A DNA stretch of 4,514 nucleotides from a virus (taxonomy: Duplodnaviria > Heunggongvirae > Uroviricota > Caudoviricetes), in IMG/VR virus record IMGVR_UViG_2585427748_000002, one strand, 5' to 3'. The first letter of the stretch is position 1. The number at the start of each line of letters is the position of its first letter. The position numbers and the translations under genes were made by a program. Positions 1-4,408 of this stretch are shown one piece after another. A model generated the notes under the pieces. That model saw only the letters and a program-made list of their open reading frames with translations. It had not been told where the DNA came from and ran no database searches.

Positions 1-166
1 GCTCTGTCGCTTCACTCAGTGCCATCAATGATGCTGCCGTCATTGGCACATCATTATTATCAGCATCCGTCCGGAAAAATTTCTCTGGCAACTTAAAACA
101 ATATCCTATATATCCGGCGTCTCCGGTATGTAGAACGTGAAGTTTTTAAAATTATTCATTTACCAT

Positions 167-679
167 TTAACTAATTTTTAGATCCTGGGGTACTCCCGTC
201 TTTTTCATTGCCTCCACGAAAGCGGAACTAACAGAACCTGACCAGTAATACTGGAACCCACTAACAACGCCCTGATAAATCATGGTTTGTGTAGCACCAC
301 CTACGTTTACGGTGATGTTACCTGCTTTACCACCGGCTAAATAAACAGCAGCTGTCGGTGTAGAGTTCGTCAAAAAGTGAGAAAGTGTAACGACAGCCCC
401 TACCAGCCTCCCTGATCCGCAGCTTGCGGCGTTTGTAATTGTACCTTTACTTTTTTCTTCTAAAGGCCAGTCAGCGCCAACTGCGCCCCAGTTATCAACC
501 TTGTCAGAGTATTTCCATTTATAGTACTCAGTTGCAATTTTACAGCCCATAGTTCGCCCAACCATTTGGCTCATCATAAAAGGTTTACTCAGTCCCAGTT
601 TGGTTCCGGCGGCTCCCATCCACTGCTCACCTGTTTCGCTCTTAGCCGAAGAGCCTACCCATCCCGATGTTACCCCCAT
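167..679 (-). CDS. Hypothetical protein of about 170 aa, Gly/Trp/Tyr-rich, no recognisable family; accessory gene downstream of stf in the position lambda uses for tfa
   Basis: The ORF track gives 167-724 with a TTG start, but the first ATG (679-677) is preceded by a strong Shine-Dalgarno GGGGGAG with a 5-nt spacer, so I place the start there. An in-frame stop at 749-751 prevents upstream extension. Stop TAA at 169-167. No signal peptide or transmembrane segment is visible, and there is no resemblance to lambda Tfa. GC content appears somewhat lower than in stf. Confidence 0.6.
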   Translation of the reverse strand: MGVTSGWVGSSAKSETGEQWMGAAGTKLGLSKPFMMSQMVGRTMGCKIATEYYKWKYSDKVDNWGAVGADWPLEEKSKGTITNAASCGSGRLVGAVVTLSHFLTNSTPTAAVYLAGGKAGNITVNVGGATQTMIYQGVVSGFQYYWSGSVSSAFVEAMKKTGVPQDLKIS

Positions 680-701
680 CTCATCTCCCCCTTCTGAATG
701 C

Positions 702-722
702 GTGGGGTGAGTGTCACCCCAC
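702..722 (-). other. Perfect 9-bp inverted repeat (stem-loop or protein-binding palindrome) between stf and the downstream gene
   Basis: Seen in sequence: gtggggtga (702-710), 3-nt loop, tcaccccac (714-722). It sits about 20 nt upstream of the SD of the 170-aa gene and has no following T-tract, so it is not a canonical intrinsic terminator. Confidence 0.4.
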
Positions 723-764
723 AATTTAAATTCAGTAGAAACCAGAAACTACAACAGCTGTCGT

Positions 765-2324
765 TTACTTCTCCCGGAGTTCTTTAATCTCATGACGAAG
801 TGTTTTAAAGCCCTCGACTAACAATGCAATTATGCCGTTGTAGTTAAGACGCAGACGTTTTTCACCAGATATAACGTCTGCGTCTTCAGTTACCAGTTCA
901 GGCAATGCTTTTTGTGCATCCTGAGCAATTAAACCAACCGACGTTTGCCAACCGTCGGCAGAGTACTGTATCTCGTAAAGATAACCAGTAAGTGCCTCCA
1001 GACGATCTAACGCATTATCCAGTTTTACCAGATTTCGCTTGTTGCGTTTATCCGAACGGATCTGAATATCGTTAAATGAGCCGTTTCCGGTCACCGTCAA
1101 ATTGCCATTAATACCACCATTAAAAGTTTGTGCCTGAGTCCATGTATTGGCAGTAGTAAGCAGTTCTGTTCCTTGCCCGGGGGCTCCTGTGTCTCCCTTC
1201 GGTCCCTGTGGCCCCGCCGGACCTGCTGGACCTGCTACTCCCGGATCACCTTTATCGCCTTTCGGCCCCGGCGCCCCTGCCGGACCTGCTGGTCCAGCCA
1301 CTCCCGGATCGCCTTTGTCACCTTTTGGCCCCTGTGCGCCTGCCGGGCCTGCAGCTCCCGTATCTCCCTTTGCCCCCTGTGGACCTGCATTTCCCGTCAG
1401 ACCGGTCTCTCCCCTGTCGCCTTTCGGCCCCTGCGGGCCTGCCGGACCAGCATCACCTGCCGGCCCCCGTTCACCGGTTGCCCCTGCCGGGCCGGTGTCG
1501 CCACGCTCTCCTTTATCTCCCTTCGGCCCCTGAGGACCCGCGGGCCCCGGTTCCCCCTTTGGCCCGGGAGGTCCCACCACGGTGGGGATTCGGTTTACGG
1601 CCTCTTCCGCCGCTATCCTGCTTTGTTCCGCTGACTGTGCGCTTTCTGCTGACTCCCGGGCTTTTTCTGTTGCGGTCGTTGCATCCCTGACTGCATTACC
1701 GGCTGCACTTTCTGCCGTCTTTTTTGACAACTCAGCATCTGTTGCACTTTGTAATGACTCACTGGCTTTTTGAGCGGCCGCAGAGGCCGAGGACGAGGAC
1801 GCCTCCTCTGACTGCTTTGCTGAGGCTGCACTTTCTGCCGCCTGCCGGGCTGACTCCGATGCATCCCCTGCTGAAGTGTCAGCATTTGCAGCGCTCTCTT
1901 CTGCCTGACTGGCTGATATGCCGGCATTCCTCGCTGACGTCTCCGCCTCTCCGGCATTCTTCTTCGCCTCCTCTGCGTTACGCACCACCTCTTCCACCAT
2001 CAGTTCAAAGCGACGCAGTGCCTCCGGACGGGCATCATCCTCCGTCATGGCACCGAGAAAATCATTCAGCGTACCGGGTTGAGAATCTTCATACACGGTG
2101 ATGGTCCCGGCATGTGACGGCGGGAACCCTTCCACCAACAGAATAACGCTGTACTGACCGTACTCAACGTCCATGCTGTAACGCCCGGCTTCATCCGGAT
2201 TTTCTGAGGCCAGCGTGTTCACCACCACCGTGGTGCTGTTACGTTTTGCTTTCAGCTGGATTGTGCAGTTCTGTACCGGTTTTCCTGTGCCGTCTTTCAG
2301 TACACCTGAAATCTTTACTGCCAT
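765..2324 (-). CDS. stf: Side tail fibre protein (lambda Stf-like N-terminal tail-attachment domain, Ala/Ser/Glu-rich linker, collagen-like Gly-X-Y tract, C-terminal intramolecular chaperone / peptidase S74-type auto-cleaving domain)
   Basis: The translation from the ATG at 2324 begins [36 protein letters not shown], matching recalled lambda Stf (orf-401). The ORF-track start at 2330 is a GTG two codons upstream; GGGGTG lies a few nt before the ATG. Track residues about 118-247 are an A/S/E-rich low-complexity region, and about 253-386 are roughly 44 Gly-X-Y triplets ([26 protein letters not shown]...). The C-terminus carries the motif [31 protein letters not shown], which fits the S-D-x-R-x-K auto-proteolysis signature of tail fibre and endosialidase intramolecular chaperone domains. 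Stop TAA at 767-765. Confidence 0.9.
1173..1574 (-). repeat. Collagen-like Gly-X-Y coding repeat tract inside stf, including an imperfect 63-bp tandem duplication at about 1206-1331
   Basis: Seen in sequence: GC-rich triplet periodicity encoding GPxGxxG repeats. The protein segments [21 protein letters not shown] and [21 protein letters not shown] are adjacent 21-aa units, with DNA copies at about 1269-1331 and 1206-1268 that are similar but not identical. The lack of stops here in several frames on both strands explains the stacked ORF-track hits. Confidence 0.75.
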
Positions 2325-3055: not shown

Positions 3056-4219
3056 TCAGCTGATACTGATGCCTGCGGTGGCTTTCTTCATCACCACAAC
3101 CAGCAAATCGCTGATACTTGCTGTGGGATACCAGTTATTCACCAGCCATGCTGATACCGAAAACTCCAGCGTCATGTGACCGTGACCGGCAGGCATATCA
3201 ATAACGCCACTGTAAATCAGCGTATTATCCAGCGCGGTACGGTTATAAATTTCAGCACCGTTTTTCCGCACTATCAGACGGCATGAGGAGTAAATATCAG
3301 TATGCTCTCTCTCATGCTTAGCGCCGCTGAATGCCACCGCCGGAATAACAATTTGCCGGTCAAAAGGCTGATCGTCATAAATCCTGACGGTAACGGTCCC
3401 TGATGGCCACCGCTCCGGTGCCCGGGAGTCCCGCGGAAAAGCCTTACCCACTGTTTTAACGAGATCGCCTTCAATCTGGTTCGCGGACAGTTTTCCCAGA
3501 ACCCGACAGTTCTCGTTAATCGTGACGTTGTTGAGCGTCCCGGAATTCGCATTCACGTTACCGCTGATATCAGCATTTCTTGCGGTCAGCCTGCCCTCCG
3601 GCGTCAGGGAAAACGTCGGGGGATTGCCGGACGAGGTGATACTCACCGCAAACAGCCGCTTCAGGAACACATCGTTCATGAACAACTGATTCCCCTGCGC
3701 CACAAATAACGGCGTGGTGTTGCCGTCCTCCGGGTTAATCATCGCAATACGGTCAGCCAGCAGCAGTATGTTGCTCAGGGGCTGGCCATCAGTATCCTCA
3801 AAACGCCGCTGCACCGACAGGGGGATCCCGTCGAGAATACTGGCAATTTCACCTGCGATCCGCGACAGCACGAAAGTACAGAATGCGGTTTCCACCACTT
3901 CAGCTGAGTCTCTGGCATTCTTCAGTTCCTGTGCGTCGGCCTGCGCACGCGTAAGTCGATGGCGTTCGTACTCAATAGTCCCTGGCTGGAGATCTGTCTC
4001 GCTGGCCTGCCGCAGTTCTTCAACTTCCCGGCGCAGCTTTTCGTTCTCAATTTCAGCATCCCTTTCGGCATACCATTTTATGACGGCGGCAGAATCATAA
4101 AGCACCTCATTACCCTTGCCACCGCCTCGCAGAACGGGCATTCCCTGTTCCTGCCAGTTCTGAATGGTACGGATACTCGCACCGAAAATGTCAGCCAGCT
4201 GCTTTTTGTTGACTTCCAT
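3056..4219 (-). CDS. Chimeric ORF: terminase small subunit Nu1 N-terminal 140 aa (winged-HTH DNA-binding and self-association region) fused in frame to a ~247-aa J-like host-specificity C-terminal receptor-binding domain; probable deletion remnant
   Basis: Translation starts [39 protein letters not shown] and stays Nu1-like through ...[13 protein letters not shown] (codon 140, plus-strand 3800-3802), matching recalled lambda Nu1. After that it diverges from Nu1 (lambda continues PELENRHVDF) into [27 protein letters not shown]...[34 protein letters not shown]. That tail ends 67 bp upstream of lom with a terminator in between, which is where the 3-prime end of J sits in lambda. ATG at 4219-4217, stop TGA at 3058-3056. 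Assignment of the C-terminal part to J rests on position and recalled similarity, not a search. Confidence 0.8.
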
Positions 4220-4240: not shown

Positions 4241-4408
4241 CAGAGAAAGGAAACGACAAAGGCCAAAAAGCCCGCTTTCAGCACCTGTCGTTTCCTTTCT
4301 TTTCAGGGGGTATTTTAAATAAAAACATTAAGTTACGACGAAGAAGAACGGAAACACCTTAAACCGGAAAATTTTCATAAATAGCGAAAACCCGCGAGGT
4401 CGCCGCCC
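4241..4408 (-). promoter_or_regulatory. cos: lambda-type cos site: cosN cohesive-end sequence plus cosB (Nu1-binding R1, R2, R3 elements and an AT-rich IHF-type site)
   Basis: Seen in sequence: plus-strand 4397-4408 aggtcgccgccc is the reverse complement of GGGCGGCGACCT, the lambda 12-nt cohesive end. Three copies of the cgtttcc(t/g)ttct motif lie at about 4244-4255 (R1, reverse orientation on plus strand), 4289-4306 (R2) and 4340-4355 (R3), with an AT-rich stretch at 4307-4335 between R2 and R3. Spacing from cosN to the Nu1 ATG at 4219 is about 190 bp, as in lambda. Positions 4409-4514 match the recalled non-coding right end of lambda (the cosQ side). Recognition is from memory of the lambda sequence. 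Confidence 0.85.

Follow-up and report, generated by a model that had tools for sequence, protein, structure and literature searches.

A short Gp38-type adhesin that very probably caps the side tail fibre encoded next to it in a defective lambdoid prophage of Escherichia coli

What kind of protein is encoded in the tfa position behind a tail fibre that already possesses a chaperone of its own? This question is raised by a stretch of 4,514 bases (hereafter, the window), which makes up an entire contig of an E. coli draft assembly (GCA_000713235.1, JORO01000079.1) and carries all its genes on the minus strand. Read in the direction of transcription, the window encodes an in-frame fusion of residues 1–143 of the terminase small subunit Nu1 to the C-terminal ~244 aa of the tail-tip protein J (3056–4219; 387 aa), Lom (2389–2988), a side tail fibre of 519 aa (765–2324; gene call) with the Pfam domains phage_tail_N, Collagen and Peptidase_S74, and a protein of 170 aa (167–679, the stop codon occupying 167–169). 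Downstream of the latter lies the 3′ fragment of a DUF4376 gene (1–94), devoid of its N-terminus and cut by the contig end, which is a pseudogene in the RefSeq annotation of near-identical loci. In two other loci, L014 and L015, an intact 222-aa DUF4376 gene (707–1375 in L014) begins 8 nt past the adhesin stop codon and is followed by a YadA_anchor gene. An Rfam scan of the window returned no match.

An earlier, sequence-only reading had found no recognisable family for the 170-aa protein. Pfam, PHROGs, the PDB entry 6F45 and RefSeq annotation each place it, and we conclude that it belongs to the Gp38 adhesin family and is already annotated as such, representing the short type without polyglycine that has been known since phage RB43. 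[quoted passage not shown]

The reading frame and its family

The reading frame reported at 167–679 is real: an open frame spans 167–724 on the minus strand, and the ATG at 679 yields 170 aa. The choice that had been left between this ATG and a TTG at 724 can be made by sequence comparison in favour of the ATG, because residue 1 of the 170-aa protein pairs with position 1 of the Pfam Gp38_N model and with residue 1 of S16 Gp38, a 1-nt indel in the Stx-phage orthologue puts the TTG out of frame, and four other homologues have a stop codon 1–12 codons before the ATG. The strong ribosome-binding site that had been noticed is present as a Shine-Dalgarno sequence, AAGGGGGAG, which is read directly at 685–693 on the minus strand, 5 nt from the ATG. 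The richness in glycine, tryptophan and tyrosine, with cysteine and histidine, is borne out by counting (24 Gly, 6 Trp and 7 Tyr, along with Cys46, Cys87 and His101).

The spacer between the fibre and the adhesin gene also contains the perfect palindrome described earlier, at 702–722 on the minus strand, with a 9-bp stem and a 3-nt loop (GTGGGGTGA-gtg-TCACCCCAC). It is nearly invariant among close relatives, the Stx phage departing from it by one G·U change and one bulge, and the alignment holds too little variation for a covariation test. The z-score of its RNA fold is only −1.7, indicating that its stability is not unusual. An intrinsic terminator was considered and rejected, as the coding strand lacks a T-run after the stem; the terminator call made by a scan at this position is on the plus strand, which has no gene there. 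One might speculate that the palindrome tunes the ratio of fibre to adhesin expression.

The Pfam model PF21721 (Phage tail fibre adhesin Gp38 N-terminal domain) is fully covered by the protein, with residues 1–40 matching model positions 1–40 at E=8e-20 and a score of 71 bits against a gathering cut-off of 25. The match to PHROG 1121, "tail fiber adhesin", runs over the full length (E=6e-60). Chain D of 6F45, the receptor recognition protein Gp38 of Salmonella phage S16, aligns with residues 1–45 at E=2e-3 when the single sequence is used and at E=4e-13 with a family profile of 14 members; its N-terminal domain was the only accepted match in PDB sequence searches with either the single protein or the profile. 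The RefSeq name of 99.9%-identical E. coli genes is "receptor recognizing protein Gp38" (WP_000539253.1), and in GenBank the 92%-identical orthologues of phages P13374 (the Stx2a phage of the O104:H4 outbreak), phi191, 75/02 Stx and Ss-VASD are named "tail fibre adhesin". The gene was found in 61 of 5,426 complete genomes. Gp38_N is the sole Pfam match at E<=1, with neither Tfa/Caudo_TAP nor any other chaperone family among the matches at that threshold, and a scan of the protein against NCBIfam gave no match. The annotation of the gene as a short Gp38-type tail-fibre adhesin thus draws on the open frame itself, PHROG 1121, the RefSeq name and dN/dS values.

Its position within the family can be further specified. 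The protein displays the N-terminal Gp38_N homology and the location directly downstream of a fibre with an S74 chaperone that characterize the Gp38 adhesin family in its broad sense. It falls outside the classical T2/T6/S16 Gp38 group typified by PF05268 and the polyglycine sandwich, there being no PF05268 match in the adhesin and no glycine run longer than 2. It conforms to the RB43-type short gp38 layout of ~170–180 aa, in which Gp38_N precedes a head of ~120 aa lacking glycine enrichment, and by sequence it does not belong to the Tfa/T4-gp38 family of assembly chaperones.

The sequence-only reading had named as a refuting outcome that the gene be a truncated fragment of a tail fibre or tail protein. 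This is contradicted by its relatives, all of which are full length at 160–183 aa, and by the signature of selection. Across six alleles pairwise dN/dS is 0.06–0.21, and dN is 0.03–0.13 in the N-terminal domain versus 0.25–0.50 in the head, the latter figure referring to divergent pairs. Sequence comparison therefore indicates that the adhesin is under purifying selection, in a pattern that is that of a working modular adhesin and not of a decaying fragment.

The partner fibre and the proposed docking of the adhesin

The fibre is composed, in order, of a lambdoid Stf-type N-terminal anchor (phage_tail_N), an alanine-rich stretch, a collagen run, a short tip and a Peptidase_S74 domain. A mechanical list of open reading frames begins the fibre at a GTG at 2330 (521 aa); the phage_tail_N alignment and independent gene calls favour the ATG at 2324 (519 aa). 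The collagen run comprises 135 residues of G-X-Y repeats (aa 251–385; 1170–1574, minus strand) and has recombination joints inside it. Strain 23CRST047 has a near-identical locus whose fibre is annotated as two pieces, split inside the collagen repeats. Alignment with 6F45_A and other S74 fibres delimits the mature tip to aa 386–423 (1056–1169, minus strand), which we regard as the probable docking surface for the adhesin.

The C-terminal intramolecular chaperone that had been attributed to this stf-like fibre is confirmed by the Pfam match to Peptidase_S74. It extends over aa 424–519 (768–1055, minus strand), with PF13884 matching aa 424–479 at E=5e-12, and the last ~115 residues of the fibre align to the S16 gp37 construct 6F45_A at E=2e-13. 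The motif FN..IRS424D...K429.N is invariant in six fibres encoded ahead of short Gp38 genes, one of them gp37 of the T-even Kosakonia phage 305. By analogy with endosialidase and T-even gp37 (PMC9569957), we predict that the chaperone is cleaved off N-terminal to Ser424 (codon 1053–1055). A second perfect inverted repeat lies within the chaperone-coding part of the fibre gene, at window positions 846–886, with 14-nt arms (AAGACGCAGACGTT and AACGTCTGCGTCTT) spaced 13 nt apart.

The juxtaposition of a self-chaperoned fibre with an unfamiliar gene in the tfa slot, to which attention had been drawn, is a hallmark of the T2/S16-type gp37-gp38 system (PMC9569957, PMC6851490). In that system the gp38 monomer attaches once the self-cleaving chaperone of gp37 is gone, and its C-terminal domain recognises the receptor (PMC9569957); docking of the S16 type proceeds by insertion of three tryptophans at the helix apices of the gp38 N-terminal domain into the fibre trimer (PMC6851490). 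The corresponding domain in our protein, aa 1–45 (545–679, minus strand), is delimited by PF21721 and 6F45_D and is predicted to dock on the tip of the fibre trimer. Trp7 and Trp20 are conserved, and the third apex tryptophan of S16 (W36) corresponds to Met35, at which position other family members display PFW. In the AF2 model the N-terminal domain is poorly confident (pLDDT 44–67).

The remainder of the protein, aa 46–170 (170–544, minus strand), is predicted to form a β-rich head without a polyglycine sandwich and to be the domain determining receptor-binding specificity. Sequence likeness to PDB entries ends at residue 45, and by sequence it is only the first ~45 residues that are demonstrably homologous to a structurally characterised Gp38. 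Fold searches recovered no solved relative of the head in the PDB and no fold resembling an enzyme, a hydrolase or a CBM. Predicted-structure searches gave as best matches other short Gp38_N proteins of T4-like phages, and a search with the head alone retrieved gene 38 products of Edwardsiella, Klebsiella and Kosakonia T4-like phages at ~40% identity. A head-only hhalign comparison with the RB43-type/Pseudotevenvirus group reached a suggestive E=1e-4 with a probability of 56% over 71 colinear columns, as against E=0.26 for the reversed control. The 174-aa gp38 of RB43 itself combines a T6-like segment of ~50 aa with an unrelated head of ~120 aa, and in selected RB43 host-range mutants every one altered Q100, a residue of the head (PMC3157838).

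Several weaker signals were discarded in the course of these searches. PDB matches to a fucose-binding lectin (E=0.38) and to LM2363 (E=0.07) were treated as noise. A lectin fold had been suggested through two further proteins, P0037 with nine tandem F-type-lectin-like repeats and P0059 with four; these are repeat-inflated, low-complexity matches, and the fold searches gave no backing for the F-type-lectin-like match.

Could the protein instead be a non-structural assembly factor akin to lambda Tfa or T4 gp38, which helps the fibre to fold, stays outside the virion and binds no receptor? Its gene occupies the tfa/gene-38 position, and some GenBank homologues are labelled "distal long tail fiber assembly catalyst" or "tail fiber assembly protein". 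Such labels are, however, inherited from T4 gp38, which is unrelated in sequence to the T2/S16 adhesin (PMC6851490, PMC3157838), and the Pfam search described above yielded no chaperone family. Moreover, the fibre is already provided with its own S74 chaperone, the N-terminal domain shares homology with the part of S16 Gp38 seen capping gp37 in the crystal, and the host-range mutations of the short RB43 gp38 fall in the head. We accordingly regard an assembly factor as very unlikely and retain the fibre-tip adhesin as the preferred reading.

The sequence of events proposed for this adhesin is as follows. The 519-aa fibre would trimerise with the aid of its C-terminal Peptidase_S74 chaperone, which would then cut itself off at the IRS424D...K429 motif. 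One 170-aa monomer might thereupon dock on the exposed tip of the trimer, at a putative stoichiometry of 3:1 patterned on the T2/S16 system, by means of its helical N-terminal domain (aa 1–45, with W7, W20 and M35). The β-rich head (aa 46–170) would become the distal end of the fibre, where it may bind a host surface receptor and set the host range.

A shared cassette and its defective carrier

The sequence-only reading had viewed the gene as possible accessory cargo and had proposed a survey of homologue neighbourhoods, with tail fibres and defence islands as the two contexts to be distinguished. Every homologue that could be placed directly follows an S74-ending fibre, and none occurs in a defence-island-like context. 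A full-length homologue with 38% identity occupies the gp34-35-36-37-38-holin slot of Kosakonia phage 305; in Stx phage 75/02 and podovirus-type prophages the homologue follows a fibre of 494–677 aa; and among large myovirus-like contigs, homologues with 67% and 60% identity come after S74 fibres of 1,532–1,708 aa. In complete lambdoid prophages the adhesin closes the H-L-K-I-J-Lom-fibre operon, at the junction of prophage and chromosome. In one of the myovirus-like contigs (L016, 474–6513), a 1,555-aa S74 fibre is succeeded by a classical glycine-rich Gp38 of 261 aa (PF21721+PF05268) and then by a short Gp38 of 170 aa (P0004) that is 67% identical to the protein studied here; this tandem suggests two alternative adhesins for one fibre tip.

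These contexts bear directly on the possibility of a moron unrelated to the fibre, whose product would serve in defence or superinfection exclusion or hydrolyse carbohydrates. The gene does lie at the prophage end past the tail fibre, a frequent position of morons, and Lom is encoded nearby. Against this, a scan of the adhesin against PADLOC-DB returned 0 families at E<=1, upon which a defence role was dropped, and no enzyme or CBM fold was matched. Cys87 and His101, which might have been taken for a catalytic pair, are unconserved beyond the closest clade, and the N-terminus is a Gp38 attachment domain and does not resemble a signal peptide. Furthermore, the gene is invariably found beside an S74 fibre tip, even in lytic T4-like phages, which carry no lysogenic cargo. 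Such a moron is hence scarcely credible. The adhesin is not free-standing; it is co-inherited with the fibre tip. Among the roles offered earlier, that of an adhesin partner for the fibre is well supported, whereas hydrolytic or carbohydrate-binding and defence or exclusion functions are without support.

Comparison of the loci reveals the extent of the co-inherited segment. Window positions 1–1457 share 96.5% identity with a podovirus-type prophage of strain NMBU-W12E19, and positions 48–1269 share 94.3% with Stx phage 75/02. Both homologies, ending at 1457 and 1269 respectively, stop inside the collagen repeats, and GC content drops from 0.70 to 0.44 in the same region. Podovirus-type and lambdoid contexts alike encode the exact 170-aa protein, and both can share one genome. 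From the shared boundaries and the identity of the protein in both contexts we infer that fibre tip, chaperone and adhesin travel together, in keeping with the description by Trojet et al. (PMC3157838) of gp37 C-termini and gp38 N-termini that pair as lock and key. The GC content of the 170-aa gene (0.474) is indeed lower than that of the whole fibre gene (0.562), as had been remarked, but the 3′ end of the fibre gene, encoding tip plus chaperone (765–1180), itself has a value of 0.438; low GC thus marks the fibre-tip-plus-adhesin block and not the 170-aa gene alone. Under the adhesin model, tip, chaperone and adhesin would move as one cassette of ~1.3–1.45 kb that recombines inside the collagen repeats, and such movement would account for the same adhesin on lambdoid side fibres, on fibres of short-tailed Stx2 phages and, distantly, in the T4-like gene-38 slot.

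Two rearranged contigs from ENA may be recorded here. The first, of 796 nt, encodes a 95-aa protein (P0012) in which the first ~66 residues of the Stf N-terminus are fused to the last 29 residues of the adhesin, and is a deletion derivative without almost the whole of fibre and adhesin. The second, of 5,741 nt (L009), joins a lambdoid-side Lom-fibre-adhesin arrangement to the 541-aa and Phage_Tail_Tip genes of podovirus-type prophages that follow the adhesin there, and reflects natural hybridisation or, alternatively, a chimeric assembly across the cassette common to both.

The copy of the cassette in the window resides in a damaged prophage. The Nu1::J fusion implies the loss of everything from nu1 to the 3′ part of J, head and tail-shaft genes included. 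An identical fusion of 387 aa is present on 12 contigs (including L019–L023), which derive from assemblies of independent isolates and from a metagenome, and its context of lysis genes-cos-Nu1′::′J-Lom-fibre is constant in 12/12; the deletion is therefore real and inherited. Its junction occurs in none of the complete RefSeq E. coli genomes. At window positions 4397–4408 lies aggtcgccgccc, which we take to be the reverse complement of the lambda cohesive-end sequence GGGCGGCGACCT; as it is flanked by lambda-like cos-region sequence, the defective prophage appears to retain a cos site beside the truncated nu1. In consequence of the deletion, the cassette is probably not displayable on a virion made by this prophage alone, and would act only via recombination with, or complementation of, another phage.

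It could accordingly be argued that the adhesin gene is a functionless leftover at this locus, neither used nor selected here, while the family is functional elsewhere. This argument draws on the nu1-to-J deletion, seen on the 12 independent contigs, and on a related genome in which the fibre gene is split into pseudogene pieces. The dN/dS values of the adhesin, being a between-lineage measure, are blind to current selection on this single copy. On the other hand, the fibre and adhesin ORFs are both intact, the protein is residue-for-residue identical to copies in apparently complete podovirus-type prophages, and the same cassette is carried by co-resident prophages of one genome, making rescue by recombination possible. 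We consider a dead leftover unlikely, albeit a rival of appreciable weight. For the window, the most fitting view of the adhesin cassette is that of a reservoir copy, open to rescue through recombination.

Comparison with known systems

To a specialist on phages this result will appear ordinary, and its practical value is modest. A false "unknown gene" is removed, and the last gene of a prophage tail module receives a functional annotation. The wider interest of the locus emerges when it is set beside the systems already described.

The adhesin of the O104:H4-type Stx2a phages P13374, phi191, 75/02 Stx and Ss-VASD, ORF66, is an orthologue of our protein with 92% amino acid identity, and these phages share the spacer, the hairpin and the fibre tip with the window. 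In them the cassette is mounted on a podovirus fibre anchor, whereas in the window it is mounted on a lambdoid Stf N-terminal domain, and the two proteins differ by 13 aa, including clusters in the head at residues 49–62 and 85–86. The segment formed by the fibre 3′ end and ORF66 has been reported as a signature of O104:H4-type Stx2 phages, with a proposed tropism for enteroaggregative E. coli (PMC4122784). The same fibre-tip/adhesin cassette sets the Stx2 phages of the 2011 O104:H4 outbreak lineage apart from other Stx phages (PMC4122784), and the identity of its receptor would tell which E. coli these toxin phages can convert. The cassette also represents a ready-made and naturally lambda-compatible part with which lambda-based delivery particles could be retargeted.

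The short gp38 proteins of the pseudo-T-even phages RB43, RB42 and RB16 (174 aa; Trojet et al. 2011, PMC3157838) agree with our protein in size, architecture and occupation of the gene-38 slot, and short Gp38s are widespread in T4-like phages. For RB43, the control of host range by the head is genetically proven. The heads of RB43 gp38 and of our protein are at best distantly related, and the receptor requirement of RB43, LPS core plus OmpF, is not transferable. A bolder reading, in which the head is a new receptor-binding fold and the cassette a host-range module across T4-like myoviruses, short-tailed Stx2 phages and lambdoid siphoviruses, we would put forward as a doubtful conjecture. If true, defective prophages could be reservoirs that give Stx phages their tropism, for instance for enteroaggregative E. 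coli.

With the Gp38 of T2, T6 and S16 (PDB 6F45; PF21721 + PF05268) our protein shares a homologous N-terminal attachment domain, a gene placed right after a fibre with a self-cleaving S74 chaperone and a gp37-like tip, and a modular construction in which the N-terminal domain is conserved and the C-terminal domain variable. The classical proteins are longer (~250–260 aa versus 170 aa) and contain a β-helix and a polyglycine-II sandwich, both of which are absent here along with the glycine-rich motifs; the third docking tryptophan of S16 is replaced by methionine; and the carrier is a myovirus long tail fibre in the one case and a lambdoid side tail fibre in the other. Lambda Tfa and T4 gp38, finally, have in common with our protein the slot immediately downstream of the fibre gene. 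They differ from it in that no sequence relationship was detected, and in that the chaperone role falls here to the S74 domain of the fibre itself. The succession of a self-chaperoned fibre and a gene other than tfa, which had at first appeared to be an oddity of this locus, is the standard design of T2 and S16.
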